Virus genome (UHGV): UHGV-0390448
Direction: 5' to 3' (one strand)
From: a virus
Length of the DNA: 64,000 nucleotides
A program made the translations under genes and the position numbers. A model generated the notes under the pieces. The model was given only the letters and a program-made list of their open reading frames with translations. It was not told the DNA's origin and did no database searches. Below, in pieces: positions 1-58,351 of this stretch. Numbering within the stretch: position 1 is the first letter of the stretch; each line of letters opens with the position of its first letter.

Positions 1-247
1 CTTGTCCGGAGGCTTCCGGAGGCACATTTGGTACGCCTCCTGGGGCATCCTGCGCCGCGCCAACGATTAAAGGTCGGCGCGTGTCTATCCTGCCTTTAGC
101 ATCCAGATAAGGAAATTCGACCCAGACTAAATCGCCGCTGACTGTAGGTGTAAAGGCGTTACCGATAGGCATTTGATACTCTGCCCATGGGAGGTCTTCA
201 TCCGGTACACCGTTCCAGTCAGGCAGTATGCGGACCTGCGCTCGCAT
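1..247 (-). CDS. Partial phage structural protein; ATG at 245-247, C-terminus beyond window start
   Basis: Minus-strand frame open from 247 to position 1 with no in-frame stop (checked by hand); same operon direction as downstream structural genes. Not in ORF track because truncated. Confidence 0.4.
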   Translation of the reverse strand, partial: MRAQVRILPDWNGVPDEDLPWAEYQMPIGNAFTPTVSGDLVWVEFPYLDAKGRIDTRRPLIVGAAQDAPGGVPNVPPEASGQ

Positions 248-291
248 AAGTCCGGCAGGGTGTTTGGTCCCTACGATTTGCGCTCTGCGTT

Positions 292-1272
292 TCACTGGTT
301 GGGTACTCCTAATATCATTCGTGTTGTATAGCCGATCCGGTCTTCAAAATGGGCTACGTTTTTCACCAGCAGCTTACGAGGCAACGATTCGTCCAGCTTA
401 TTTTCCTGGTCGTAACGATACACGAGGATCTCAATAACCATTCCCGGCGTGATGTCGGGATTACCCGCGACCTCAATATCCATTTTGGGTACGAGCGACA
501 ATTGCATATTGCGCAGAGTTTCCATATCCGGATCGGATATATAGCGTATTGGAAGTGAGCTATCGCCATATTCGACATAGCCTTCAGTCATTGAATAGCC
601 GGTAAATCGATACTGAGTATTTGCCGTAACGGCATACTCTTGCTGTATAAGCCTCATTTTTGAAATCGTGTATTCTGCCCTGGGGTTGTTCCCTTCATAG
701 GTGAATGATGATTTAGCTTTCATAAGGTCAGCTAATGTATAAAAGTTAAACTGACCACGGCAGGCCCAGCATAAAGCGCCTTTGTCGCGGGCCATTTCAG
801 ATAGCATTTTGGAGGGTTTTTCCCCGGCGGAAAGATGGTACGTACAGCTTCGTTTCAATGCGCTGGAGGAAACTTTCAGTGTACCGGTATACGTCTTGAA
901 AATGGTATCAGGCGTTTTGTTTGTATGCAGGTTAGCCCGTAGAGCGGGGATCTTAAATATCCGAACGTCTTCACTGACTGCAATGACCGTAATGACATCA
1001 CCAGCCAGCACCGCAGATGTTACGAAAAAAGTTGTTTTAAACGTGCCTGAATTGCCTTGTGGATCACCCATCTCTGCAACCAGTGCTGCGCCGTATTTTG
1101 TTTTCCAGTCATCAATTATGGTGCCGGTAATATCGTGAATTTCCAGTTTCAGCAATGGTGCACGCAGGTTTGCCTTTTCCACATATACGGCAGTGAATAT
1201 CCACTCCCTGGGCACTTTGTTTCCGTTGATGGTAACGGACTGTAGAAAGTATTGCTGTAGCTCCTGGGACAT
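292..1272 (-). CDS. Phage virion structural protein (tail or baseplate region), family not recognised
   Basis: 326-aa ORF, tightly packed with neighbours 1276-2043 and 2040-2912 on the same strand. Confidence 0.6.
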   Translation of the reverse strand: MSQELQQYFLQSVTINGNKVPREWIFTAVYVEKANLRAPLLKLEIHDITGTIIDDWKTKYGAALVAEMGDPQGNSGTFKTTFFVTSAVLAGDVITVIAVSEDVRIFKIPALRANLHTNKTPDTIFKTYTGTLKVSSSALKRSCTYHLSAGEKPSKMLSEMARDKGALCWACRGQFNFYTLADLMKAKSSFTYEGNNPRAEYTISKMRLIQQEYAVTANTQYRFTGYSMTEGYVEYGDSSLPIRYISDPDMETLRNMQLSLVPKMDIEVAGNPDITPGMVIEILVYRYDQENKLDESLPRKLLVKNVAHFEDRIGYTTRMILGVPNQ

Positions 1273-1275
1273 GGC

Positions 1276-2043
1276 TTACCCCATTCTCAGAGAGGTTTCA
1301 GTAATAATTCGTTTCGCGTCCAGCTCCCAGGCCGTGATCACGTCTGCTATAACACTAATTGCCGTTTGTGCAGCATAAATACGCTCTTCCCCAATTGGGG
1401 CTGAAACATCAGTAAAACTGATGTCTTTAGCATCCTGAATCGCGCAAATTAGCGGGACGGGTACTCGTACCAGCGGGGTTGTTGCTGCAAACTGCGTTCC
1501 TGCCATCAAGCGAAGACGTGCTCCTAGCGAATTACACATCAGACTCATGGTCGCCTTATCCGTCGCCATTAACGTAACGTCATACGTCAGATTTGCCTGG
1601 GTGTATTCCAGGGCTACTAAAGGCATACCGCTGCCAGGTTCGCAGAAGTGATCACAGCTTTTGCGGTCTATCTGCTGGTCATTGTTGATATAGCTGATAT
1701 CCATTGAGCGCGAGATATTAATCAGAGGGAGCGCATCGCGATTAATGTTCGGATTCTCTGGCTTTCTCCCTTGCCCGGCATTAGCACGGCGAACCGCTTT
1801 AAGGAACTCGACCGCGTTATCAAAACGGGCAACATAAACACGTTCTGCTGGTGGGCGACTCAGGAATGATGCAAAGCGCCTTTCTTCTTTTGCTGGTTCC
1901 ACCAGCGTTACGTCAGAAAAAATGTCGCTGATTAGCGTAGCAAAAGCGTTATCCACTCTTTCCAGACCAGTTGTCTGGAATTTTCCAGTACGCGTTGTCT
2001 GCCACTCGCCAATGCGGGACAGTAGAGTTTTGTTAGGTGTCAT
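1276..2043 (-). CDS. Phage structural/morphogenesis protein, unknown family
   Basis: 255-aa ORF; 4-nt gap to downstream gene and 4-nt overlap with upstream gene. Confidence 0.6.
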   Translation of the reverse strand: MTPNKTLLSRIGEWQTTRTGKFQTTGLERVDNAFATLISDIFSDVTLVEPAKEERRFASFLSRPPAERVYVARFDNAVEFLKAVRRANAGQGRKPENPNINRDALPLINISRSMDISYINNDQQIDRKSCDHFCEPGSGMPLVALEYTQANLTYDVTLMATDKATMSLMCNSLGARLRLMAGTQFAATTPLVRVPVPLICAIQDAKDISFTDVSAPIGEERIYAAQTAISVIADVITAWELDAKRIITETSLRMG

Positions 2044-2912
2044 TCGATCACTCCGTTTTGAGTGGTATCAAAGTTCCTGGCCGGGATGCAGTAATAAAGG
2101 GAACCAACGTGTTGTGTTCCGTAGCTGAAGATTCGATGCACGTACCACCAGCGGCGGGCGAGGCCATTCGCCATTTCTTCGTTCCATTCCAGGATTGAAC
2201 CAACAGGTACGTTGTTTGCAGCAATACGCAGGATTAGCACTTCATCAGCAAGACCATCCTGTTCTCCATCGGCATCAATGGCATGAAACGAATCCCTTCC
2301 GTCCGGGTTATCCAGGACGTATACGATTTCCGGTTCCAGATAGGTAAGCTCACGCTGGTTGTTGTCCAGTTGCGTGAAAGACTCTTCACCTGTTTCATCG
2401 TTTACGACGCCATAGGTGCCATCAGCCGGGCGATATAAAAGCGCCTCGAATGCGTCAGGGCTTGATTCAATAATGAGCATCCAATCGGCGCGGATCTGGT
2501 CGTTGAACGCTTTGTGTCCGTTATATCGGGTTTTAAGCTGCTGGTTTGGTTGTCTGTTAGCGAGCGATGCCGGTAGGGGGGCGATGTCAGGTTCAATCAC
2601 TTCCGTAACAGAGTCACCAGCATTATCAGGCCAATTATCATGGCGGCTATCTGCTTCGGTGGCAGCGTGTTCTTCCAGAATACTGAATGGCCCTGTACTG
2701 ACCTTCCCATTTTCCGTTGTGCTTCCTTCATTCGCTTCAACCGTCGTTGTCTCTTCTCTCTGCGTGCTGTCATGTTCTGTTCCCTTTCTCATCAGGCTTG
2801 CATCATCAGCAAACCATTCATCAAAACGGCCCATAAGCGTCCTCAAAGGTCGATTTATCAGGTATCGAGGGGCATTGTCAGGAGATTGTGATTTCAATTC
2901 ATATCCCAGCAT
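2040..2912 (-). CDS. Phage protein, acidic, unknown function
   Basis: 290-aa ORF, first gene of the minus-strand block ending at window start. Confidence 0.55.
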   Translation of the reverse strand: MLGYELKSQSPDNAPRYLINRPLRTLMGRFDEWFADDASLMRKGTEHDSTQREETTTVEANEGSTTENGKVSTGPFSILEEHAATEADSRHDNWPDNAGDSVTEVIEPDIAPLPASLANRQPNQQLKTRYNGHKAFNDQIRADWMLIIESSPDAFEALLYRPADGTYGVVNDETGEESFTQLDNNQRELTYLEPEIVYVLDNPDGRDSFHAIDADGEQDGLADEVLILRIAANNVPVGSILEWNEEMANGLARRWWYVHRIFSYGTQHVGSLYYCIPARNFDTTQNGVIE

Positions 2913-2950
2913 GGGACTAAAGTGCTTTACATTGTCCCATATTGGGACTA
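2904..2950. promoter_or_regulatory. TGGGAC-containing inverted and direct repeats upstream of higB; candidate operator
   Basis: atgggac (2911-2917) and gtcccat (2934-2940) form an inverted repeat; ttgggacta repeats at 2942-2950; 30-70 bp upstream of the higB start. Confidence 0.35.
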
Positions 2951-2978
2951 CTATACTTTCAGAGAGAAGGAATCTGTG

Positions 2979-3281
2979 ATGAAAATAATTTCGGTAAAAA
3001 CACTAAGGGATTTCTGGGCGAAGAATCCCGATGCAGAACAGCCATTAAAGGCATGGGTTGATGAAGCAACAAAGGCTGACTGGAAAAATCCGGCTGAGAT
3101 CAAAGAACAGTACCGGACAGCCAGCATCCTTAAAAACAGGCGCGTGGTGTTCAATATTAAGGGAAATGATTACAGGTTAATTGTCGCAATTGCTTATCAG
3201 CGAGGATGGATGTTCGTTAAGTTTATTGGAACACATAAGGAATACGATGCCATTGACGCGGATACAATAGAACTGGAGTAA
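2979..3281 (+). CDS. higB: Type II toxin HigB family (RelE-fold mRNA interferase)
   Basis: About 100-aa product from internal ATG (MKIISVKTLRDFW...), followed 4 nt later by an HTH antitoxin; sequence pattern matches HigB-family toxins from memory. Confidence 0.75.
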   Translation: MKIISVKTLRDFWAKNPDAEQPLKAWVDEATKADWKNPAEIKEQYRTASILKNRRVVFNIKGNDYRLIVAIAYQRGWMFVKFIGTHKEYDAIDADTIELE

Positions 3282-3284
3282 ATC

Positions 3285-3644
3285 ATGAACATTAAACCTA
3301 TCCGTACAGAACAAGATTATGAGGCCGCACTGCGTGCGGTCGAACCGATGTTCGATAACGAACCGGAAATGAACACCCCGGAAGGTGATTTCTTTGAGGT
3401 CATGTGTCTTCTCATTGAGGAGTACGAGAAAAAACATTACCCAATTGAGCCACCATCACCTATTGAAGCCATTAAATTCCGCATGGAACAGCAAGGGCTG
3501 ACCGTGAAGGATCTGGAACCGGCAATTGGTAAGTCAAACCGTGTTTACGAAGTGCTAAATGGAACACGAAATTTAACGTTACCTATGATTCGTCGTTTAC
3601 ATTCCCAGTTTGGCATTCCTCTTGAAAGTTTGGTTGGTGTATGA
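3285..3644 (+). CDS. higA: HigA-family antitoxin, XRE-type HTH in C-terminal half
   Basis: 119 aa; HTH-like segment LTVKDLEPAIGKSNRVYEVLNG; immediately downstream of higB. Confidence 0.75.
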   Translation: MNIKPIRTEQDYEAALRAVEPMFDNEPEMNTPEGDFFEVMCLLIEEYEKKHYPIEPPSPIEAIKFRMEQQGLTVKDLEPAIGKSNRVYEVLNGTRNLTLPMIRRLHSQFGIPLESLVGV

Positions 3645-3646
3645 GT

Positions 3647-3675
3647 TCGGCGGTCTGTATGACCGCCTTTGTTGT
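3647..3675 (+). terminator. Rho-independent terminator after higBA
   Basis: ggcggtc-tgtat-gaccgcc hairpin followed by tttgttgt. Confidence 0.55.
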
Positions 3676-3678
3676 CAA

Positions 3679-4875
3679 TCAAGAACCTTTCTTCACGTAC
3701 TCCATAAACATTTTTTCAGCTTGCTCAGGTGACGTTCCTGTCATGACCAGCGCATCAATGAACGCTTGCTTCTTCAGTGCGAATTGATCGGCAAGGCGTT
3801 GCTGAAGCTCCTTGTTTTTCTGTTTCTCACGTTGCAAGGCTGCTTCTTTTGCTGCTGCCCGTTTTTTTTGTGCATCGGACAACTTTCTGGCCCTGGTCAG
3901 CTGGTCACGTAGCTTGTCAATCTTGCCGTTGTCCTTTGCCAGTTTTGTGCTTAAAGCGGCCTGGCGTTTCTGATAGAGCTTCCATTCACGTTTAGCTGCC
4001 TCAACATTCGTTTTGCTGCTACGGTTTCGATTGAACGCCTTCTCGTCTTCTTTTGTGAAGTGTTTTGTCGTGCGGCGGCGATCGTCACCAAAGGCAACTT
4101 GCGTTGCAGCTTTTTGCAGGGCGCGAGCAATACTCATCTGCCAACTGGCAGACTGTAGTCGTGTCATTGAGTGGATCACATGTTTACAGGCGACGCCTTG
4201 CAGCTTAGGGTTGCGAACTTTTGGATAGGCGTATTCTTTTGGCGGGGCCAGGGCAAAGTTACCCGCAGTGGCGATGTAGCGATACCAGTATTGATGGCGA
4301 CCGCAGTCACAGTCGAAAGACACTCGCCCGGCACACAGTGATTTTGTGACTTTCAGGGCTGATTTATCATCTTCTGCGATGTCATCGACCATCTGATCCC
4401 ATTCTTCAAAACGTACCCGGACAATGTGGTGCTGGTGAACGGATATATCGGACGCTTCCACTCGGATATTAATCACATTGTGACGAAGAGATACGGGCGT
4501 AGCTCTTTTGATACCAGAACCGTCGTCTACGGCGTTATTTGCTCGCTTAATATCGATAGCCTGGCTGGACGCTACCAGTTGTGCGTATGTGATGCCAGCC
4601 GTCTTGCTGTCATATTTTTCGCGTGCTTTGCTTCGCAGCTTTTCGAAGCCTTTCAGATCGTCACGCGTAAAGAACGTGCCGCCTTTCTTTTTCCCCAGCT
4701 TAAGAATGTCTTCGGCTGATTTATTCCTAAGCCTGCCCGGCGTGAGTGTCCTGTGCGCCTGGCGGCGTTTGCGGTTTTGCTCTTTCCTGATGAGTTCAAA
4801 TACGCGTGTGAAATCCTTAGAGGACAGACCGTTAGTGATATATCGCCCGTCCTGATTTTTCAGGAAGTCAGGCAT
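3679..4875 (-). CDS. Hypothetical 398-aa protein with SWIM-like CxC...CxH zinc-finger motif and lysine-rich coiled-coil C-terminus
   Basis: Motif FDCDCGRH...GVACKHVIH; overlaps upstream gene 4868-5197 by 8 nt (operon). Confidence 0.6.
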   Translation of the reverse strand: MPDFLKNQDGRYITNGLSSKDFTRVFELIRKEQNRKRRQAHRTLTPGRLRNKSAEDILKLGKKKGGTFFTRDDLKGFEKLRSKAREKYDSKTAGITYAQLVASSQAIDIKRANNAVDDGSGIKRATPVSLRHNVINIRVEASDISVHQHHIVRVRFEEWDQMVDDIAEDDKSALKVTKSLCAGRVSFDCDCGRHQYWYRYIATAGNFALAPPKEYAYPKVRNPKLQGVACKHVIHSMTRLQSASWQMSIARALQKAATQVAFGDDRRRTTKHFTKEDEKAFNRNRSSKTNVEAAKREWKLYQKRQAALSTKLAKDNGKIDKLRDQLTRARKLSDAQKKRAAAKEAALQREKQKNKELQQRLADQFALKKQAFIDALVMTGTSPEQAEKMFMEYVKKGS

Positions 4876-5197
4876 TTTCTATCTCCGGTGCCGAGCCAGC
4901 GTAATCGCGAATCTTGTTTCTTAGCCATGCTGCGTCAGGAAGAGTTAACGTTGTCCCTACCGGCATTTCTTCCATTTCTGACTCATGGCCCACCAGCACG
5001 CGAAATACCCAGCGCAAATCAGCATTGCCATAGGCGCGATAGGCCGCCAGGTCTGAGCGATAAACCTCATCAATTTTTATCGTGTACTGGAAATTATCGG
5101 AGTGATACTCCGATACCCGCTTGATCATCTCCTGATGGAATAGTGCGCGCAGCACATCGTCTTCAATGCATCGATCGTCGAGCCTGCTGTAACTCAT
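4868..5197 (-). CDS. Small protein with tail-protein-X-like (LysM-like) C-terminal region
   Basis: 109 aa; C-terminal pattern RSDLAAYRAYG...VGTTLTLPD resembles P2 gpX-type LysM-like domain (recalled, not searched). Confidence 0.45.
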   Translation of the reverse strand: MSYSRLDDRCIEDDVLRALFHQEMIKRVSEYHSDNFQYTIKIDEVYRSDLAAYRAYGNADLRWVFRVLVGHESEMEEMPVGTTLTLPDAAWLRNKIRDYAGSAPEIENA

Positions 5198-5289
5198 AAC
5201 AGTTCCTCACAGTCATAACCTGTGGGGAACTGTATGCAGGGTGTGAAATGCGGGAAAGCAGCGTCACCTGGCCTGGTGACGCTGTAAAA

Positions 5290-5571
5290 TTATGCGTGGG
5301 AAAATAATGGACGGATGTTTGGGCGAGCGGTTTGCGAAGCAACCCAAAGCTCATACTGGGATTGCATACCGGTCCACATTTCGGCACTGGTTCCAAGAGC
5401 GGACTCCAGACGAAGTGCCATATCAGCAGAAATACCTGTTTTTTCGTTCAGAATTCGGGAAAGTGCCGTGCGAGTAATGCCTAATGCAGCAGCTGCGTCT
5501 GTGACTGACATGTCTCCCAAATATTCACGAAGAACCGCGCCTGGATGCGCGGGATTATGCATACGACTCAT
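5290..5571 (-). CDS. HigA-family HTH antitoxin-like protein
   Basis: 93 aa starting [18 protein letters not shown], the characteristic N-terminus of HigA-type antidote proteins; 4-nt overlap with upstream HTH gene. Confidence 0.65.
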
Positions 5572-5867
5572 ATGTGGAAAGCAACCCGTTTACCGGTTGG
5601 CAATTCAACGTCCAGACTCAACTTTCCACCCATAGCCTCAACGTAACGTTTAAGCGTTGCTACTTTCAAGTCATTGCCTCGTTGTTCAAGTTTTGTGATG
5701 GCTGGTTGACTAATTCCCATCGCATCGGCAACTGTTTTTTGTGATAACTGAAGCTCCTCTCTCAACATCTGCAATCCGACTTCCAGAATCATTTCATCAG
5801 CCTGCTCTTTGATACGAGCTTGGCTTTCAGGGGATTGCGCAGCAATAACTTCTCTTAGAGTTCTCAT
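5568..5867 (-). CDS. XRE-family HTH protein, probable antitoxin of adjacent RelE/ParE toxin
   Basis: 99 aa; HTH segment [22 protein letters not shown]; start overlaps toxin stop by 1 nt. Confidence 0.65.
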
Positions 5868-6214
5868 TATTTTTTCTCAAGTTCTGCAAGATGGTTGGAA
5901 AATTCGTCGTCTGCAATCCGTATCATTCTTTCGTAGAACTTTTTATCGTTACTCTTATCTCCGGCGCACAGGATTATGGCTTGCCTTACCGGATCAAATG
6001 CGAAGAATGCTCTGATAGGGCGACCAGCGTACTGAATCCGTAACTCCTTCATGTTTTTATGGCGTGAGCCTTTAACTGTGTCGGCATATGGCCTTGATAA
6101 TGAAGGGCCATATGTTTCCAGATTGATCAGGTCAACCAGGATTTTTTCTTTTAATGCAGGTTCCTGTTCCTGGAACCATTCATCAAAAATTTTTCCAAAA
6201 TAAATTTGCCACAT
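5867..6214 (-). CDS. RelE/ParE-superfamily toxin (Gp49-like addiction module killer)
   Basis: 115 aa; toxin-first arrangement followed by HTH partner; perfect palindrome upstream. Confidence 0.65.
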   Translation of the reverse strand: MWQIYFGKIFDEWFQEQEPALKEKILVDLINLETYGPSLSRPYADTVKGSRHKNMKELRIQYAGRPIRAFFAFDPVRQAIILCAGDKSNDKKFYERMIRIADDEFSNHLAELEKK

Positions 6215-6250
6215 AGTTATTCAAAATCCTTTTTAATAAACTACATGTTA

Positions 6251-6285
6251 TAAACTACAGGTTATATCATATAACCTGTAGTTTA
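6251..6285. promoter_or_regulatory. Perfect 17-1-17 palindrome, candidate autoregulatory operator of the RelE/ParE locus
   Basis: taaactacaggttatat-c-atataacctgtagttta; lies 37-70 bp upstream of the toxin start; adjacent direct repeat of aaactaca. Confidence 0.6.
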
Positions 6286-6319
6286 TATTTTCAAGGCCAT
6301 TTTTTATTCGATTTAGCAT

Positions 6320-6973
6320 TTAAAGTATCACGGTATCCTCATCAACTTCTTTCCCTGCCAGTGACTTTGGCTGGGAGGCTGCTGCTTTAACCTTCTCATG
6401 CCCAATAATGGACAGGAACGAGGCCATTATCCCTGCTTTGTTTTCTTTCTCTACCGCTCCTGTCATTTGTTTCAGGTAATCCGCGCTGGCAACATTGTGG
6501 TATACCGTTGCATAGCAGCACAGAATCATCAGGATGTGCTCTGGTCGGATATCTTGCCAGTTAACTCGATAAACCTCTTCACCGTTGCCGTTGTATTCGG
6601 TATCGACGATAGAGTCGGGGATCTCAAATGCCCCTTTGTTCTTGTCAGGCAGGGATAGCAGCCTTTGTAGTTTCAGCTCCCGGTATCTTTCCATGCCGAC
6701 AATGATCGCCGCTCTGCCGTCGGCGTGCCGTGTTTTTAATGTTACCTGACTGGCACCTGTACCGGCTGAAATGGTTGGCGTGATTTCGTCAACCAGCACC
6801 TTAAATTCACTTTTACGCAGCTCGGCAATTGCTGGTGGAATTTTTCGTTTTTGTTCAATAGCAGATGCAGGGAGCGGCTTTACTTTGTCAATTACAAGCG
6901 CGCCGTCTTTCAGGACTGCCGTAGCCATCAGCGGCTTGTTAGTCGAAAGGCTGAATATTGCGATCTTTTGCAT
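6320..6973 (-). CDS. Hypothetical protein, 217 aa
   Basis: ORF with strong hairpin-T7 element just upstream of its start; no family recognised. Confidence 0.5.
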   Translation of the reverse strand: MQKIAIFSLSTNKPLMATAVLKDGALVIDKVKPLPASAIEQKRKIPPAIAELRKSEFKVLVDEITPTISAGTGASQVTLKTRHADGRAAIIVGMERYRELKLQRLLSLPDKNKGAFEIPDSIVDTEYNGNGEEVYRVNWQDIRPEHILMILCCYATVYHNVASADYLKQMTGAVEKENKAGIMASFLSIIGHEKVKAAASQPKSLAGKEVDEDTVIL

Positions 6974-6998
6974 GGCTTTTACTCCACGATAGCAGGCA

Positions 6999-7031
6999 CA
7001 AAAAAAGGCCGCACATGGCGGCCTGCTTTGG
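6999..7031 (-). terminator. Rho-independent terminator, minus-strand orientation
   Basis: ggccgc-acatg-gcggcc stem with a 7-8 nt A-run on the plus strand, equivalent to a U-run on the minus strand. Confidence 0.5.
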
Positions 7032-7238
7032 CGTTATGACTCCCTACCGCGCATCGGCTGAAAGTTAGTCGTCAAAAGAACCTTCAACGGGAGCCGTTTG
7101 CGTAATGGATTTTGTCCAGATTGTGATTTCCAGAATAGTGTCAACAATTTTTTTGAATTTTTTATTCGCTCTGAATTTGGCCTAGGTCATTTTGGCGTAG
7201 ATGTTTGCTTTTGTAACATAAAGCTTCAGTTTGTTTAC

Positions 7239-7862
7239 ATGAAGGATGGTTTTGTGAAGTTAAGGGTTTTGGGAGCAGTGCTCGCGGTTATATTGGGGGG
7301 AGTTTCTCTTAATGCTGCCTATGCAGGCGCGTTACCTGCAAAGTATGAGGCTGGGCTGAAGGTGTTACGAAACGCCAAAACAAACTATACGCCTGATGAA
7401 GTTTCAAACTATTGCCAGAAAGAAAATATCCCACTGAAACCTGTAGAGCCATTCTTTAAAAGCAACATAGAGTTCTGTGTATTTGCGTATGCAGCAGATG
7501 AAACAGGAAAGGCCATACAAAAGACAGGGTATTCCACCAAAGACACAATGTCAGTGTTAAGTAACGGCGTGTTGCAGTTTGAGCTTTATCGTCAGCAAGG
7601 AATGGGAGATCTATTGCAGCCTTTGTATGGTCTAGCATTGGTGCCGGAAGGTCAGCAGTTTCTGATCAAAAAAGGCCTCATGAGGCAGGAAGATGTAGCT
7701 GGTTTCGATGCCATCGTTGCCTATGAAAAACAACTCAAGGAACAGCGCAATAAAAAACCATCTGCCTCATGCGTGCAAAGCAAAACAGCAGAATACAGCG
7801 CAGTGGCTGGGCCTTTAGCCCCACAAATGGCAGAGCAATGGTGTAAACAATACGGGCAATAA
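7239..7862 (+). CDS. Secreted protein with N-terminal signal peptide (moron)
   Basis: Start chosen at internal ATG (MKDGFVKLRVLGAVLAVILGGVSLNAAYA...); the track ORF begins earlier at 7098. Confidence 0.55.
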   Translation: MKDGFVKLRVLGAVLAVILGGVSLNAAYAGALPAKYEAGLKVLRNAKTNYTPDEVSNYCQKENIPLKPVEPFFKSNIEFCVFAYAADETGKAIQKTGYSTKDTMSVLSNGVLQFELYRQQGMGDLLQPLYGLALVPEGQQFLIKKGLMRQEDVAGFDAIVAYEKQLKEQRNKKPSASCVQSKTAEYSAVAGPLAPQMAEQWCKQYGQ

Positions 7863-7882
7863 GTTACGCAGCGGAGGCAGAA

Positions 7883-8275
7883 TTGAAAAGATTAGCTATT
7901 GCTTTATTGGCAGCTTTCCCTTTGATCGCTCACGCCGGGAATTTACAAGTGAAGTGCGGTAGGTTTGATATAAAAATCTATCCGAACGCCATATTTCTGA
8001 ATGGGAATAAGGTCGATAACGCGCACCGGAAAACTGAATCTGACGTAATGAGCTATGTGTTCCAGGAGTATGCCGAGATGGGGGGAACTTACACGTTGTA
8101 CTCGCTGGATGTTCCATCTCGCGGTGATATGACGTTATCTCATCAATGGCAGAACGCCGATGGCGAAGCTCTGCGCGAGGTTAAAACAGAAAAATGTGGC
8201 ACTTTCCATTCTTTTAAAGGGAAAGCGCCCAATGTTAAATCTACGCTTGAAAAACAGCGTGCTGGTGAGCTTTAA
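7883..8275 (+). CDS. Secreted protein with signal peptide, TTG start
   Basis: MKRLAIALLAAFPLIAHA signal-like N-terminus; ggagg RBS 6-10 nt upstream of the TTG. Confidence 0.55.
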   Translation: MKRLAIALLAAFPLIAHAGNLQVKCGRFDIKIYPNAIFLNGNKVDNAHRKTESDVMSYVFQEYAEMGGTYTLYSLDVPSRGDMTLSHQWQNADGEALREVKTEKCGTFHSFKGKAPNVKSTLEKQRAGEL

Positions 8276-42605: not shown

Positions 42606-45600
42606 TTAAGCCGCATCGGCGATTATTTTACGCAATTCATCTACCGAGTAACGCGTAGATACCATCCACGCCGGACGGTCAAAGTCCACATCCGCGACCG
42701 GATTCACTTCAAAATTCCAGAAACGCCCGCCAATCTTCTTAATCGCGTCTTTGGCGTTCCGTATTGTCGAGGAACCTGGTTGGTCGGCAATGAGATAAAC
42801 CGCGCCAACGTCCTCGCTGACGCTCCACCAGCGCCCGCGAACACGCGCCTTAGCGCGAATAGGCTTATCATTAACCACAATGATATAGTCATCATTCGCC
42901 GCTTCATCAGCTCTGGCTTCAGCCTCTGCCGCCTGCTCTTCTCTTTTGCTTTCAGCCTGTTCAAGCCTTTCCGCGATCTCTGATTCGGTGGCCCCGCCGT
43001 TTTTCAGCGATACAAAGTCTTGCCACGTTGCTGATTTGAGCGCATCCGGCAACTCATTCACATAGTCACCGTCTTTCAACTCACGGGCGCGGCGGGTAGC
43101 CATTTCTACCAGGCGATTAACAGAAACAGCATCAGCAAAATCGTCCTTACTAATGTGTTTTTCATCAAATGCATTGATGACAGCCCCCACCTTAATCCAC
43201 TGTGCTGCCGGTGATTCCAGGGGGTTATCAGCCTGGACAATGGCGAGTTTCGCTCCATCTACCCCATTATTCGCCAACTGTTCCAGTGCCGCCCATCCAT
43301 CTGCATCACTGAGTGATTTATATTGCTCAAACAATGCATCGCGCCAGGCCACCAGCGCAGAACGTGTTTTTTCGATCTTCGTCTTAATTTTCGCGATCTT
43401 GACCTGATTAAACATCCGTTCAATATCATCGATATTGCTAAAGGCTTTCATCCTGCCCTTGAATAAACGGTATGCCAGCACGGTCCTCCAGAATGATTCC
43501 AGACCTTCTCCGGACGGTTTGCGGAACAAGCTAAGAATATCTTCAGAAGTGACTTTATTAAGCGAACGACCTGACAGACCACGCCCAGCCATCCAGTTTT
43601 CGAACTCCTGGGCAACATCATCCATCGTTGCCTGTGCGCCCCATGCCTGCATTCCCTGGATGTAATCATACCCATACAATGCCTGGAGGAATCCCTCACC
43701 GTCCACGATATTCAGCGGGTTATCACTGGCTTGTATTTTTGCCACTTCACGCTTCAGCGCCTCATCGTTGCCATCTGGATATATCCATCGTTCAGGTGCT
43801 ATATCCGATGCTCGCCCGATTTTTTGGCCTATCACGCCATCATAGGCCGATGACAGCGCGATCTGACCATCATCTGTGCGATATGCCCAGTATTTAATAG
43901 CTGACCCACCGCCCCATGCATTACCAGGTTTACCAGCAATAACATTCATTACCCCATTGCGAATAGCATCATAGAACTGATCGCGAGTAAGTATTGTTGA
44001 TAGCTGGTGGCACTGAACACCACGCGCAGCCGTTGCGCGCGATTCAGCTACCCCCTCTTCAAAAGTTACCGCTTCAATCACAGAGTCAAACGGCAATGTA
44101 ACGATTGACCCTGGTGATCGAGCGTAACGACTTGCTCTATCCAGCCAGGCGATACGGCAGATGTACTGTGCTTTTTCACCGTCAATTTTTTCCACCCGGA
44201 CAATCGCTGTTGTTTCGCGATCATCAATGACTGCACGGTAATAACTACCTTTATGCAACAGGATATTCTTGTCAGTGCGCATATATTCCTGTGGGTTCTG
44301 AATAACATCGATACTGATATCCAGCACACCAGACTTAATAGCGCGCTCCACATCACCACGAGAGCGTTTCATTATGGTATCCGCGTCTTTTGCCCTGGTG
44401 ATCGCAAACCGCAGCACCCGCGCACGTTTTCTGTAGCTACTCAACTGCTCAAGCGCGTATTTTTGCCCATTCCTGTTCGTGCCCGCTTTTATCAGGTCGT
44501 CAAGATTGCGCTGGTAATACTCTATCTGTTCCATCGCGCTTTTCAGTTCTGTCTCCATCATGCCGATATCTTTTCCAGCGGCGTTTGCCGCTTTCAGGTA
44601 GATATCGAGAGCATTGTTGGCCTCGCGCTGTGCTTTCAGTTTCAGACGTTCTTCACGCTCTTGCGCCTGGCGAGCCATGATTGCGCGGCGTTCTTCCGGG
44701 TTTGCCGCCAGCATAATGGCGCGTTCATCAGCATCATCCGCATCACCATTGGCGATCTCTGACATGTCGGAGGTCATCACCATCTTGATCCAGTCTTTCT
44801 TACGTTTCAGCGTATCCAGACGGAAGTCGTCGAATGTGCCTTTGCCACAATAGTAGTGAACATTGACCTTCTCTTGCGGTGAACCTACGCGCGCACCGCG
44901 CCCATTTCGTTGGTCGATACTGGCTGGTGTCCAGGGTAGTGTCAGGTGGTGGATATCGGTTGTCCCGATATGCAGGTTAATACCTACTTCAGCCTTCTTG
45001 TTACAGATAATGATGCGCGTGCGCCCTTCGTTATAGTCGGCGGCAATGCCTTCCATACCCTCAAGGCCAGCATCATTTTTAGCTGAGAGATAATCCTCAT
45101 ATTGGGCAAGTTTGCTGTAGTAGGTTTCCCATGCCCCTTCTTTGTATTCACCGTTTTTATTCGGAGTAGGTTCAGTCGGCTTATTCACCTTCTTCAGCTT
45201 GATGCCGCCAGCCTGGCTAACGGTCGTCGCATTGATAATGCCTATCTCCTGCTCCGGCATTTGCAGTGCACTGGCGATAATACGGCGCAGCTTCTGGTGC
45301 TGGGCTTTTTCATCAATGAAGACAATTTGTTTACCGTTCTTCAGACCTTCACGAAGGTTTTCGATCAGCGCGGCATACTTCGGCGGGATGGGGTGTGATA
45401 CCTGCTGCAGATCAATCCCGGCGGCAGCAATGGCCTTCAGTATTTCAGCTTCCAGTTCAATGCTGGCACGTATTTCAACATGCGCCGGATGTTCACTAAA
45501 GGTGGTCTTCACTACCTTACTGGTGCGCGTACTAACCAGCCCACCAGCGCCGTCTTCTTCGGCCTCGTCTGCATCATCTGCCACTTTACCGCCAGCTACT

Positions 45601-48600
45601 TTTGGCAGGGCATCAGCAATAGCTTTTACCTTGTCTGCAAGCTCAACGGGGAACTGGAATGTAATCGCACTGGCATACAGATCCGGATCTATAGCAACCT
45701 TATCCATGTCGCGGATGATGGAGAAGATGAAATCATCCGGTTTTTCGTTTGTGATATGCCCGTTTTCATCAACCGTCAGCGCATCTTTACTACTTAACTC
45801 CTGTGCACGCTTACGAAGCTCTTCATAAGCAGCCTCCTGCTCCCCTGTCATCGGGATCTGCAAGGTATTCTCGACAATATCAGGGATTTTAACCGTCGCC
45901 CCGACGTCCGCAGCAGTCTTCAGAGTAGTCCAGCGATGGAAAATACCACGCAGGCCATCAAGGTTCTGGAAGCCAACCAGCCCCTGCTTCTCTTCCACTT
46001 CCCCGGAAATTTTCTGGACCTGAACTGTGGCTGTTTTGCCAAACACACGAACGAAATCATCAGGCGTAATGATGCCCATGCGCATCCACTCTTCCTGCGG
46101 AATGACAGTAGACAGCATGTTGAAGGCATCAATCGGACTGTTCACCAGCGGAGTTGCCGTCAGCATGACTACACCACGCCCGTTGTTGCGTTTCATCATG
46201 TACGCAGCTTTTACAGCCATGTCGCGGGCCATCTTGGATACTGCCGGGTTAGGCAAATATGCCAGTTGTCCCGCTTCACGCCCGGCATTAAAGGAGTTGC
46301 GGTAGTTATGCCCCTCGTCGGCAATCACGCTATCGAAGTTCATATCCTCAAAGTACGGGATATTCTGCTTCTTCGTTGTACCGGTATTCGCGGCCTGATC
46401 CTTAATCTTGTTCTTCTTCTGCGCATCACGGTGTTTACCAGACGCCAGGTCAAGACGCCCCATTTCCACAGCATTAAAGACAGCTTGCTGTGAGTTCTCC
46501 TCGATGGTTTTTTCTCGTAGCGGGATAGACGCGAATTGTTCTTTTGTCATGATGACCGTTCGCCAATTTGACGACGGGATCATGTTCATGCGCTGAACGA
46601 TAACGGCGCTGGCGGACTCTTTCACAACATTTCTGGTAAGAGGCTGCCCGTTACTGTCGAGGCGGGGTTCGCCATTTTCATCAAGCACCGGCGCGGTCAG
46701 AATATTGCCGTCTTCATCACGAACTTCATCCAGACCGATAAACATCATATTGGCGAAGGCATCAGCACTGTAGAAGCTCTGTGCCTCGTGATACCAGTTC
46801 TGATAAACCGCCTTCGGAACAACAATACACGTGCGTTTAGTGCGGCCTGTTTCGAAGTTATACGCCTCAAGCGCAAGCGCGGTCGTGGTTTTACCCAGCC
46901 CGGTACCAAATCCCATGATGCCGCGCCCATCTTCTGACAAGCGCCGAACTTCTTCATTCTGATAAGTCAGAGGAATGCGCTTTCCACTAATCCCTTCCAG
47001 GCCAAGCGGTGCGTTAGAGTGCGTGAACGGAATGAAGCCATTGAATGCGTCGTTATACTCGCGGGCTATCTGATCCGCCTGCGGGTGGGTGCGTAACCAG
47101 TCGTTAAAACTAACTTCCAGTTGAGCAATTTTATCCAGGTACTCGTTAGCGTTCTGCCCACGCGGTTTAACACCGTTCAGGTAGTTTTCTAACTGGTTCA
47201 GGAAGCCGTCTTTATTGTTGGCCTTCTTGAACTCATTCCCGTTTTTGCCGTTTACGGTTCGTAGCTGATAGCCGGTAAATACCCCGTCCTTACCTTCGTA
47301 ATCGTCCGGAGATACCAGAATGCCATCGACGACCTTCAGATCAGGTTCAGTGTACTTAAACTCGTCATAGCCCTGCTCTGCCAGGAACTCTTTTATCAAG
47401 CGGCGATCCAGCCAGCGGGCGTTCAGATTAACGGTGACTTTATTTAGTGGCGTGAAAATGCGTTTCTCTTCGATTTTCGCCAACTGACGCTCAAAGTTCG
47501 ATTTCTGCTCACCTGTTGACGCATCACGCCAGCCCATCAGCAATGCTGTTTTGGTTGCAATATCGCCGCTGGTGGCGCGGTCCATCGGCAGCAGGCAGCC
47601 ATACCCATCAATAGCGATATCATCAAATTTCGCCAGGTATTCAAGGGCCGCGTCGTCGTCCTCTGGCAGTTCACCAGCAAACGCCTCACGAAAGTCGCCC
47701 AGCGTTATAGGATTAAGGGCTACATCACTGAAAAGATGTGCTATCACTTGTTCCGGACGTGTAAAGTCAATACCGGCAGCACCATCCGTTACATCAAGTC
47801 GCCCTGCCAGAAGGTCAGAAGTGGAACCATCCTGTTTCACGTTGCCAGTGAACGTCATCCAGTTTTTAGCTCCAGCTTCTGCAAGCCCATTCAGCTTAAT
47901 CGCGTGCGGTGGTCCATACTTCGCAACTTCTGCTGCCGCCAGGCGGGATGCATCTGCCAGTTTGTCATCAACGTTCACCCCCAGGTTACGCAAATCAAGT
48001 GCCTTGTTGATCAACTGCCCTATCAACGCACCGCGCATAACGCGCTCCCTATCTTTTTCTCGCTGTTTGCCAGCAAAGCGAATCATTGCTGCCACTTCAT
48101 CACTGACAACCGATGGATAGTCGGACGCGATCGCCGATATCTGGTCCCATGACAAAGCCAGAATCCCGTTTGTTGACTGGAACGCGATCTGCAGATCGCC
48201 AAACGTCGAAACACCATATCGACTTACATCAAGCGCGGAGGATTTGGTTGTCGTGTCCTTAACCCATTTCAGGCCATCAAACTCATGCCAGATACCGCCT
48301 ACAAGGCGCTTATCCCCTACTTTTGCGCCCTGCCATGCCTGGGTAGTTACTCCGAGCAAATCCCAATTAATACGGCTTTCAAAGCGGCGTGATAGAGCGG
48401 TTTTCATCGACTCATTGGATACACGGCCATCCTTTTTCACCACCAGGGTATTGCGGAAGCTGGTGCGTTCCATGTCGCCATAAACAAATCGCTTCCCTTC
48501 GGTTGTAAACCATTTCCCTTTGAGGAAGGAATCCCAAAGGACGTTTGCCGATTTGAGCGTTGCATCATCCGTGTCGGGGATCATCTCCAGGAAGGTTTCC

Positions 48601-49457
48601 GGGTGTTTACGCAATACCCATACGTCCACCACGGTATCTGTACCGGATTCGCTGAACGTACCAGAAGGCATACGATGCGCGCCCAAAAATTCCGCCTTAC
48701 GGCTGACTTTATCGCGCAATTTTTTGTATTTCGTACCATCGGTCATGCCATTCGGCACCACCAATACAATTAGTCCACCAGGCTTAACCTTGTCGATCGT
48801 GCGCAGCACAAAGTAATTGCCAACGTTCTTCTCGTTTGCATATGCCGGATCAAGCCCGGCGACACCGGAACGCCCTTCACCAAACGGTACGTTACCAACA
48901 GCGTGATCATACATTGCGTCTTTCGCCGCCAGCGCCTCAAACGCCCCGATATTCACATCGTCTTCCGGGTGCAAAAGCTGGTTTATTCGACCGGAAATCG
49001 GAGACAGTTCGGCGCTGGTCATTATCATGCCCTGCCGTTTTGTCTCCTGGAAAATACCTGTGCCTGCTGACGGTTCCAGTACGTGACCGCTATCAATACC
49101 GTAGTCGCCGAAGAGATCCCATATACCTTCTGCCATAAACTGTGGCGTATAGTATTCGTATTGGCTGCCCTCACCATCTGTCAGGCCGCCTTCACCGGTA
49201 TACCCGGCAAGAATCTGGCGCTGTTCGTCAGTTAATTTCGCCCCATCGAAGCCGGGCGGAAGGGAATTAAGAAGATCTACTGCGGCGTTGTTTGCTGCCC
49301 GGCGTGTTTTCTGAATACTGACGCCATCGACTTTCTTAACGCCAAAGGTCACTACAGCTCGCGGTTTATGCAACCGACTAACAATTTCAATCAGCGCCCC
49401 AATGCTGGTGGCCTGGCTAATTGAATCAATTATTTTGTCCAAAGGAAGCCCCCTCAA
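42606..49457 (-). CDS. darB: DarB-like giant virion antirestriction protein (N6-adenine methyltransferase plus SF2 helicase)
   Basis: 2283 aa; MTase motifs VLEPSAGTGIF and GNVPFG; helicase motifs GFGTGLGKTTTA, ADEGHNYRNS, MLTATPLVNS; size and domain order match P1 DarB (about 2255 aa). Confidence 0.75.
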   Translation of the reverse strand: MRGLPLDKIIDSISQATSIGALIEIVSRLHKPRAVVTFGVKKVDGVSIQKTRRAANNAAVDLLNSLPPGFDGAKLTDEQRQILAGYTGEGGLTDGEGSQYEYYTPQFMAEGIWDLFGDYGIDSGHVLEPSAGTGIFQETKRQGMIMTSAELSPISGRINQLLHPEDDVNIGAFEALAAKDAMYDHAVGNVPFGEGRSGVAGLDPAYANEKNVGNYFVLRTIDKVKPGGLIVLVVPNGMTDGTKYKKLRDKVSRKAEFLGAHRMPSGTFSESGTDTVVDVWVLRKHPETFLEMIPDTDDATLKSANVLWDSFLKGKWFTTEGKRFVYGDMERTSFRNTLVVKKDGRVSNESMKTALSRRFESRINWDLLGVTTQAWQGAKVGDKRLVGGIWHEFDGLKWVKDTTTKSSALDVSRYGVSTFGDLQIAFQSTNGILALSWDQISAIASDYPSVVSDEVAAMIRFAGKQREKDRERVMRGALIGQLINKALDLRNLGVNVDDKLADASRLAAAEVAKYGPPHAIKLNGLAEAGAKNWMTFTGNVKQDGSTSDLLAGRLDVTDGAAGIDFTRPEQVIAHLFSDVALNPITLGDFREAFAGELPEDDDAALEYLAKFDDIAIDGYGCLLPMDRATSGDIATKTALLMGWRDASTGEQKSNFERQLAKIEEKRIFTPLNKVTVNLNARWLDRRLIKEFLAEQGYDEFKYTEPDLKVVDGILVSPDDYEGKDGVFTGYQLRTVNGKNGNEFKKANNKDGFLNQLENYLNGVKPRGQNANEYLDKIAQLEVSFNDWLRTHPQADQIAREYNDAFNGFIPFTHSNAPLGLEGISGKRIPLTYQNEEVRRLSEDGRGIMGFGTGLGKTTTALALEAYNFETGRTKRTCIVVPKAVYQNWYHEAQSFYSADAFANMMFIGLDEVRDEDGNILTAPVLDENGEPRLDSNGQPLTRNVVKESASAVIVQRMNMIPSSNWRTVIMTKEQFASIPLREKTIEENSQQAVFNAVEMGRLDLASGKHRDAQKKNKIKDQAANTGTTKKQNIPYFEDMNFDSVIADEGHNYRNSFNAGREAGQLAYLPNPAVSKMARDMAVKAAYMMKRNNGRGVVMLTATPLVNSPIDAFNMLSTVIPQEEWMRMGIITPDDFVRVFGKTATVQVQKISGEVEEKQGLVGFQNLDGLRGIFHRWTTLKTAADVGATVKIPDIVENTLQIPMTGEQEAAYEELRKRAQELSSKDALTVDENGHITNEKPDDFIFSIIRDMDKVAIDPDLYASAITFQFPVELADKVKAIADALPKVAGGKVADDADEAEEDGAGGLVSTRTSKVVKTTFSEHPAHVEIRASIELEAEILKAIAAAGIDLQQVSHPIPPKYAALIENLREGLKNGKQIVFIDEKAQHQKLRRIIASALQMPEQEIGIINATTVSQAGGIKLKKVNKPTEPTPNKNGEYKEGAWETYYSKLAQYEDYLSAKNDAGLEGMEGIAADYNEGRTRIIICNKKAEVGINLHIGTTDIHHLTLPWTPASIDQRNGRGARVGSPQEKVNVHYYCGKGTFDDFRLDTLKRKKDWIKMVMTSDMSEIANGDADDADERAIMLAANPEERRAIMARQAQEREERLKLKAQREANNALDIYLKAANAAGKDIGMMETELKSAMEQIEYYQRNLDDLIKAGTNRNGQKYALEQLSSYRKRARVLRFAITRAKDADTIMKRSRGDVERAIKSGVLDISIDVIQNPQEYMRTDKNILLHKGSYYRAVIDDRETTAIVRVEKIDGEKAQYICRIAWLDRASRYARSPGSIVTLPFDSVIEAVTFEEGVAESRATAARGVQCHQLSTILTRDQFYDAIRNGVMNVIAGKPGNAWGGGSAIKYWAYRTDDGQIALSSAYDGVIGQKIGRASDIAPERWIYPDGNDEALKREVAKIQASDNPLNIVDGEGFLQALYGYDYIQGMQAWGAQATMDDVAQEFENWMAGRGLSGRSLNKVTSEDILSLFRKPSGEGLESFWRTVLAYRLFKGRMKAFSNIDDIERMFNQVKIAKIKTKIEKTRSALVAWRDALFEQYKSLSDADGWAALEQLANNGVDGAKLAIVQADNPLESPAAQWIKVGAVINAFDEKHISKDDFADAVSVNRLVEMATRRARELKDGDYVNELPDALKSATWQDFVSLKNGGATESEIAERLEQAESKREEQAAEAEARADEAANDDYIIVVNDKPIRAKARVRGRWWSVSEDVGAVYLIADQPGSSTIRNAKDAIKKIGGRFWNFEVNPVADVDFDRPAWMVSTRYSVDELRKIIADAA

Positions 49458-57979: not shown

Positions 57980-58351
57980 TTACGCTGCATACCCGTTAGC
58001 TGAAACCCAGTTTACGGTCTGTTCTTTGGCCTGGTCGAGTGTCAAAAATTCACCAATATATTGAGATATGCCTCTCAAAGCATCGATGAACTCCATTTGT
58101 GATGATTTAGTAAATGCACCACTAAGGAAGTCAACAACAATTTTAGGCGTTTCTTGTGCCGCCGGTTGCACTTCCTCTTCTTGCTGTTGCGCTGGATTAT
58201 TCGATGAACCAAGCCCCAGCTTCATCATCACTTCAACTATCCGCACGCCAATAGTGACACGTTGTACCGCAGTCGCGCTTTTTTGCGCTGACATCAGCTC
58301 AGACAGTTCTTTGCCTAAGCTAAGGCGCTCCGTTACTGATATTTTCACCAC
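57980..58351 (-). CDS. Hypothetical protein
   Basis: 123 aa; overlaps upstream gene by 7 nt. Confidence 0.45.
   Translation of the reverse strand: MVKISVTERLSLGKELSELMSAQKSATAVQRVTIGVRIVEVMMKLGLGSSNNPAQQQEEEVQPAAQETPKIVVDFLSGAFTKSSQMEFIDALRGISQYIGEFLTLDQAKEQTVNWVSANGYAA

Follow-up and report, generated by a model that had tools for sequence, protein, structure and literature searches.

Phage P1 serves as a model, and its relatives among the phage-plasmids are widespread and carry resistance genes. In cryogenic electron microscopy (cryo-EM) structures of P1, gp26 forms a six-fold plug between hub and wedges that is related to T4 gp53 (PMC12810830; bioRxiv 10.1101/2025.07.21.665459), and gp7 is the stopper (PMC12810830); gp24 has been identified as the terminator (PMC12810830, PMC9024508). 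The protein gp25 is neither modelled nor mentioned in the two cryo-EM studies (PMC12810830; bioRxiv 10.1101/2025.07.21.665459), was represented by only 2 peptides in liquid chromatography-tandem mass spectrometry (LC-MS/MS) of the P1 virion and had no HHpred match >50% (PMC9024508). Gene 25, which is essential in P1, is defined by amber mutants with a morphogenetic defect (PMC10695390), and published tables assign it to a ‘tail stability’ class together with gene 7 and partly gene 24 (PMC9024508, PMC10695390). Of the products of 26-25-7-24-6, gp25 is the only one for which two cryo-EM atlases and a proteome of the virion have yielded no place in the particle and no predicted fold. Here we describe the counterparts of genes 26 and 25 in virus genome UHGV-0390448, a stretch of 64,000 nucleotides (nt) that we call the window, and show that gp25 is built around a divergent SWIM-type finger. 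Both genes are already known and present in public databases; the invariant SWIM-type core of gp25, its conserved and extreme positive charge and its neck-module relatives appear to be undescribed and make its role directly testable.

The window is a D6-like, P1-type phage-plasmid. Its bases 1-8000 share 82% nucleotide identity over 73% of their length with Escherichia phage D6, a P1 relative, and portal, terminase, DarB-like and tail-fibre genes are found elsewhere in it. The D6 counterparts of the pair are annotated as ‘similar to P1 gene 26’ and ‘similar to P1 gene 25’, with mat before them and genes 7, 24, 6 and 5 after them. Homology and gene order identify the pair as genes 26 and 25 of a conserved late operon of the P1 type, mat-26-25-7-24-6(-5). 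The initial annotation suggested that they may be genuine tail-assembly genes, and this is borne out, as they are the orthologues of P1 genes 26 and 25. Gene 26 (4868..5197, minus strand, ATG start) encodes 109 amino acids (aa) of a LysM-like baseplate ‘plug’ of the gp53/gpX type, and gene 25 (3679..4875, minus strand, ATG start) encodes a 398-aa, 45.6-kDa ‘tail stability’ protein with a SWIM-type core. The two genes overlap by 8 nt, ATGCCTGA (4868..4875, minus strand), within which the gene 25 ATG (4875-4873) precedes the gene 26 TGA (4870-4868) by 2 nt. A Shine-Dalgarno-like GAGGA or GGAGA lies 6 nt 5′ of both starts, and the overlap of stop and start suggests translational coupling of the pair, as read from the sequence. 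A sigma-70 promoter scan gave no convincing promoter for gene 26 and an overall count not above that of shuffled sequences; P1 late promoters are outside the scope of the tool.

The window gp25 matches phrog_1722 over residues 2-396 (E 2.4e-195) and is 96% identical to D6 orf74 and 56% identical to P1 gp25 (tblastn E 6e-112). It is homologous to the P1 and D6 proteins over its full length, occupies the operon position that they do and shares their invariant CxC...CKH core, although the last ~60 C-terminal residues diverge from P1 gp25 and the tblastn alignment ends at residue 334. This large family comprises 649 clusters at 50% identity (E<1e-3). Pfam gave no matches at E<0.1 for the two proteins and four neighbours, an NCBIfam search returned nothing meaningful, and comparison of gp25 with the Protein Data Bank (PDB) yielded only a spurious pectin lyase by sequence (E 0.048) and nothing by profile. 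Databases name the protein generically as a ‘tail protein’. In Xanthomonas phage Rb1 the homologue (L004, 6800-7879) is labelled ‘transcriptional regulator MvaT’, probably a mis-annotation arising from its Lys-rich tail. The present analysis corrects both labels.

The core of gp25 is a divergent SWIM-type finger with a long insert. Residues 189-232 form the motif CDC-x38-CKH, in which the putative zinc ligands are C189 (4311-4309), C191 (4305-4303), C230 (4188-4186) and H232 (4182-4180), all within 4180..4311 on the minus strand. The motif arose in only 3/20,000 composition-preserving shuffles of gp25 (1.5e-4), and the four ligands are invariant in alignments of 28, 32 and 66 sequences, down to ~22% identity. 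The 32-sequence alignment, whose members share 22-50% identity with the query, has just 11 invariant columns, four of which are C189, C191, C230 and H232. More broadly, 264 family sequences cover the finger; all 261 complete homologues carry C, C, C and H at these positions, and the other three are truncated fragments. The CxC...CxH SWIM-type signature to which the initial annotation drew attention in the 398-aa product is therefore genuine, and no other feature of gp25 is conserved as well. As both open reading frames (ORFs), their toxin-antitoxin (TA) flanks and the low chance rate of CDC-x38-CKH were all verified, the underlying observation stands.

The predicted fold agrees with the motif. 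A model of residues 88-265 is confident (predicted local distance difference test, pLDDT, 94.6; predicted template modelling score 0.90). The top structural match of the core is human ZSWIM8 (PDB 9rwz), a solved SWIM fold to which it is similar. Structural matches in BFVD include phage proteins named ‘SWIM-type domain-containing protein’ in UniProt. As in SWIM zinc fingers (PF04434, ZSWIM8), the arrangement is CxC...CxH with CKH at the start of a helix and a beta-sheet before it. It differs from them in its phage tail/neck operon setting, in its sub-threshold Pfam score and in the spacer between CxC and CKH, which measures 36-38 residues in 259/264 family sequences, is longer than in typical SWIM fingers and holds an extra helix and a conserved FPKIRNP loop. 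SWIM was the most recurrent sub-threshold Pfam family, seen in 6/32 gp25 family members, and short homologues, described below, have the canonical CxCPDF...CKH form. However, the window gp25 has no match to Pfam SWIM (PF04434), and the best homologues, which are short forms, reach E 0.034 and 0.18 (11.8-14.2 bits) against a gathering threshold of 19.6 bits. Formal Pfam membership is thus lacking, and for this reason we word the assignment as ‘divergent SWIM-type’. We infer that the predicted ligands bind zinc. The literature searched describes no precedent for a SWIM finger in a phage tail/neck operon and contains no paper linking SWIM to phage P1.

On either side of this core, gp25 is strongly basic. 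The full-length protein has an isoelectric point of 10.1 and a net charge of +37, and all family members are very basic (median +34, n=131, range +14 to +51). The AlphaFold2 (AF2) model of the whole chain (pLDDT 79) divides it into three parts: a basic, mostly helical N-terminal region of net charge +13 (residues 1-90; 4606..4875, minus strand; predicted helices 19-39, 54-60 and 71-87), the globular core, in which a three-stranded beta-sheet precedes the SWIM-type finger (residues 91-262; 4090..4605, minus strand), and a Lys/Arg-rich C-terminal region of net charge +17 (residues 263-398; 3682..4089, minus strand; predicted long helices 291-314, 318-378 and 383-396). A long lysine-rich coiled coil was proposed at first for this protein; its C-terminal 136 residues are rich in K+R (36, versus 19 D+E) and in the model form the long predicted helices.

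The 109-aa partner can be placed more directly. It matches solved P1 Gp26 (PDB 9ay5_S/9vzk) with E 2.4e-18 and phrog_1269, ‘baseplate wedge subunit’, with E 1e-35, which identifies it by sequence as P1 gp26, a LysM-like plug that fixes the wedge ring to the hub. The gpX-like LysM pattern first seen in this product holds at the level of the family. Among 29 diverse gp26 sequences, Phage_gp53 is matched by 9/29 (best E 1.8e-5) and Phage_tail_X by 4/29 (best E 1.1e-3), and hhalign aligns the family with P2 gpX over the LysM-like segment (E ~1e-3) and with T4 gp53 (E 8e-4). The window protein itself has no Pfam match to Phage_gp53 or Phage_tail_X. With 109 aa it is longer than P2 gpX (67 aa) and shorter than T4 gp53 (196 aa).

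Our preferred interpretation, to which we give a probability of about 0.5, is that gp25 serves morphogenesis at the head-proximal end of the tail, as a factor that is transient or present in low copy; it is neither a repeated, ordered building block of the tail nor the hub. A head-proximal role is favoured because of the genetic class of gene 25, its synteny, the neck position of its short-form relatives, the absence of gp25 from symmetric maps and its weak virion signal. Synteny was assessed in 242 related loci representing 31 gp25 clusters at ~60% identity. Genes 7-24-6 follow gene 25 in most of the 25 diverse lineages listed, and the order mat-26-25-7-24-6 is common to most diverse lineages. 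Whereas gp26, gp7, gp24 and gp6 all match solved P1 virion chains, gp25 is the sole product of 26-25-7-24-6 without one. In this scheme gp25 would work alongside the terminator gp24 and the acidic stopper gp7, helping to lock or complete the tail and so permit stable head-tail joining. Its zinc finger would serve as a rigid interaction module, and its highly basic arms would bind an acidic partner, for which gp7, the DNA end and the lumen of the neck or tube are candidates. The partner and the locking step are drawn from genetics, synteny and charge.

The short-form relatives belong to otherwise unrelated myophages of Gram-positive hosts, in which they lie in the neck gene block. Bacillus phages HSE3 (gp067) and SP-15 (gp038), Listeria phage LIS04 and Streptococcus phage GXN1 encode SWIM proteins of 181-289 aa that are homologous to the gp25 core, as judged by matches to phrog_4315 and phrog_1722 (E 2e-13 to 9e-10) and a BFVD structural match. 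In all four phages the gene lies between a gp13-like adaptor and the sheath gene, and in HSE3 the intervening genes are typed as tail-completion and sheath-stabilizer. The short forms differ from gp25 in having no basic N- and C-terminal arms and in not adjoining a gp26-like gene. A database search with HSE3 gp067 found 14 relatives only. The gene just upstream of the HSE3 SWIM gene (L243, 4747-5676) matches phrog_1053, as does, in Acinetobacter ABMM1-like phages, the gene that directly follows the sheath gene (L087, 17955-18722); this protein may be another neck or tail protein that travels with the module.

Several observations weigh against a head-proximal role. The ‘tail stability’ phenotype of gene 25 is known to us second-hand, through PMC9024508 and PMC10695390, and CRISPR interference (CRISPRi) against P1 gene 25 cuts plating only ~10-fold (PMC10695390). 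The tightest linkage of gene 25 in the P1 supergroup is to the baseplate gene 26 rather than to gene 7, and no gp7 or gp24 homologue was detected downstream of it in the Acinetobacter ABMM1 group. Nor are the short forms strongly basic. Finally, although the signs of the two charges are universal (gp7 is always acidic: median -30, n=88, range -11 to -45), the charges of gp25 and gp7 are not correlated in magnitude (Spearman -0.26, p 0.17, n=30), and the charges are therefore not evidence of a direct gp25-gp7 pair.

The linkage to gene 26 is the starting point of the alternative that survives best, which we nevertheless regard as unlikely: that gp25 assists the plug gp26 as a partner or an assembly chaperone. 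The overlapping genes would yield the two in a fixed ratio, and gp25 would help to load gp26 or to join wedges to the hub and then leave the particle, like T4 gp51/gp26. In 20 of the 26 clusters listed (31 in all), gene 25 has a gp26-like gene immediately upstream, in the same orientation and with a gap of -17 to +17 nt. This linkage extends to the distant Acinetobacter group, in which the 92-aa protein encoded before gene 25 matches phrog_1269 (E 4e-34). The mild acidity of gp26 (family median -3.4) facing a basic gp25, the absence of gp25 from the solved baseplate and a published proposal of chaperone-type roles for gp7, gp16 and gp25 (PMC9024508) fit the same idea. Adjacency alone, however, is no proof of interaction in an operon that mixes baseplate and neck genes. 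P1 genetics separates the two, with gene 26 in the ‘baseplate’ and gene 25 in the ‘tail stability’ class, and the short forms of Gram-positive phages sit in the neck block, not beside gp53-like or baseplate genes.

The basic arms and the finger could also be turned towards DNA, and DNA binding by so basic a protein is possible. We hold it doubtful that gp25 is a few-copy, virion-internal DNA-binding protein located in the neck channel or at the DNA end, where it would help to hold the end of the genome or to bring it into place and would leave with the DNA on ejection; in function it would resemble T4 gp2 or Mu N. The net charge of every family member (+14 to +51) and the occurrence of this type of finger in DNA-associated proteins are in keeping with such a role. 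So is the virion LC-MS/MS signal, which is weak but reproducible and similar to that of the 6-copy gp7, although it could be carry-over, and a protein of this kind would be unseen in symmetrised maps. The connector channel of P1, with a width of at least 40 Å, is unusually wide and is not closed by the stopper (PMC12810830), and T4 genes 4, 2 and 3 likewise adjoin gene 53. Against this, the reported phenotype lies in the tail and not in the DNA or the head, SWIM domains also serve for contacts between proteins, the short forms are without basic arms, and gp25 has no homology to T4 gp2 or Mu gp43. T4 gp2, Mu gp43/N and T4 gp51/gp26 are functional analogues only, being low-copy or non-structural and encoded beside gp53-like or hub genes; T4 gp2 and Mu gp43/N have no sequence or profile similarity to gp25, and T4 gp2 is without cysteines. 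A more specific version, in which a few copies of gp25 in the neck channel or at the genome end plug or hold the DNA and the tape measure's end during joining and are then ejected, seems to us more doubtful still; if true, gp25 would represent a new neck-lumen or pilot class, present in P1-like phage-plasmids and, as the short form, in large Gram-positive myophages.

That gp25 is instead an accessory, non-morphogenetic nucleic-acid-binding protein, a regulator or moron lodged among tail genes, is very improbable. The initial annotation left room for such an accessory function, and the position of gene 25 between two mobile TA cassettes, the basic protein with its zinc finger and the ‘MvaT’ label of one homologue might seem to favour it, as might weaker SWIM-like proteins encoded among DNA-metabolism genes in Maribacter phage Colly_1 and Achromobacter phage Motura. 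Gene 25, however, is a core, syntenic morphogenetic gene that keeps its place in hundreds of phage lineages (649 clusters), P1 amber mutants have a morphogenetic defect, and it is the TA cassettes that are the insertions. The small SWIM-like proteins of Colly_1 (L249, 4779-5264) and Motura (L250, 4764-5183) resemble the short form weakly, and their genes lie among those for ligase, sigma factor, dUTPase, SSB and RecA; in these large phages the finger is put to a different use that is not structural. Because these genes adjoin DNA-metabolism genes, a SWIM domain alone does not fix the role of a protein.

The remaining reading, that the pair is an X-like protein followed by a gpD/gpN-like structural hub, is next to impossible: the order of a small LysM-like protein and a ~400-aa protein and the database name ‘tail protein’ suggested it, but hhalign gives a probability of <=0.2% against P2 gpD and Mu gp43, the core fold resembles a SWIM domain and not a gp27-like hub, and the actual hub is gp6 (PMC12810830). 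The ‘X-like then D-like’ order first proposed for the locus consequently fails in its second half, gp25 having a profile unrelated to P2 gpD or Mu gp43 and the gpD/gp27-type hub being gp6. A confident gpD/gpN match with unconserved Cys and His positions had been named as the outcome that would refute the initial annotation; the opposite was found, namely no such match and invariant Cys and His. Homologies of gp25 to a hub, terminator, end-protector or circularization protein were all rejected, the family profile being negative against T4 gp2, gp3 and gp4, P2 gpD, gpU, gpR, gpS and gpX, and Mu gp43. For P2 gpD the hhalign probability was 0.2% (E 0.33-0.35) and for Mu gp43 (N, DNA circularization protein) 0.07%.

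The next operon gene after gene 25 is the gene 7 homologue (2040..2912, minus strand), encoding a 290-aa protein of net charge -28 that matches the stopper ring of the head-tail connector (PDB 9ums_B, Gp7, E 6e-43). The window gp7 carries ~95 extra, very acidic N-terminal residues relative to solved P1 Gp7, and the match begins at residue 97. The gene 24 homologue (1276..2043, minus strand) encodes the 255-aa tail terminator (PDB 8jan_y, Gp24, E 4e-18), and the gene 6 homologue (292..1272, minus strand) encodes a 326-aa baseplate hub of the gpD/gp27 type (PDB 9vzk_1, Gp6, E 2.8e-75), the family profile of which matches P2 gpD with E 3.5e-4 over 149 columns. By these matches the hub is gp6, encoded three genes downstream of gene 25. 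At the other end, a 217-aa mat homologue (6320..6973, minus strand) is identified from the D6 annotation and a match to phrog_1837 (E 6e-92); mat directly precedes gene 26 in D6 and most related lineages.

The order in the window is 26-25-[higBA]-7-24-6. The two ORFs of 3679-5197 are both on the minus strand; as reported at first, they lie between two TA loci, and Pfam confirms both cassettes. One of them (2922..3644, plus strand) comprises higB, with a probable ATG at 2979, and higA, an antitoxin with a helix-turn-helix (HTH) domain (HigB_toxin E 5e-34; HTH_3). It lies between genes 25 and 7 on the opposite strand to both; in other lineages, gene 7 comes directly after gene 25, and the window thus departs from the P1 layout in that gene 25 is split from gene 7 by the inserted higBA. 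The second cassette (5290..6214, minus strand) comprises a Gp49-like toxin (5867-6214; Gp49 E 1e-21), an HTH antitoxin (5568-5867) and a HigA-like HTH protein (5290-5571), with HTH_3 matches of E 2e-9 and 1.5e-10. It lies between mat and gene 26, an interval that in D6 holds two tiny ORFs only. Since the order mat-26-25-7-24-6 recurs across most diverse lineages, both cassettes are read, from comparative gene order, as insertions into a conserved operon.

The gene 25-7 junction has the look of a site where morons insert repeatedly; the cargo found there in D6 is another one, comprising RelE, two HigA-like genes and one hypothetical gene. In the window, late transcription of gene 7 must traverse the higBA cassette in antisense. 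In P1, CRISPRi knock-down of genes 25 and 26 reduced plating only ~10-fold and was non-polar on 7-24-6-5, despite the existing amber mutants (PMC10695390). This could mean that an internal promoter lies between genes 25 and 7, exactly at the site of the TA insertion in the window.

Just past the HigA-like gene and ~60 nt upstream of the gene 26 start, the minus strand carries a perfect 9-bp-stem hairpin, AGCGTCACC-AGGCCA-GGTGACGCT, followed by GCTTTCCCGCATTTC (window 5260-5283), which may be a terminator of the TA transcript. Further away, the window encodes a 2283-aa DarB-like methyltransferase/helicase antirestriction protein (42606-49457, minus strand; phrog_1685 and phrog_10089) and a DarA-like ‘released upon infection’ protein (58345-60303).

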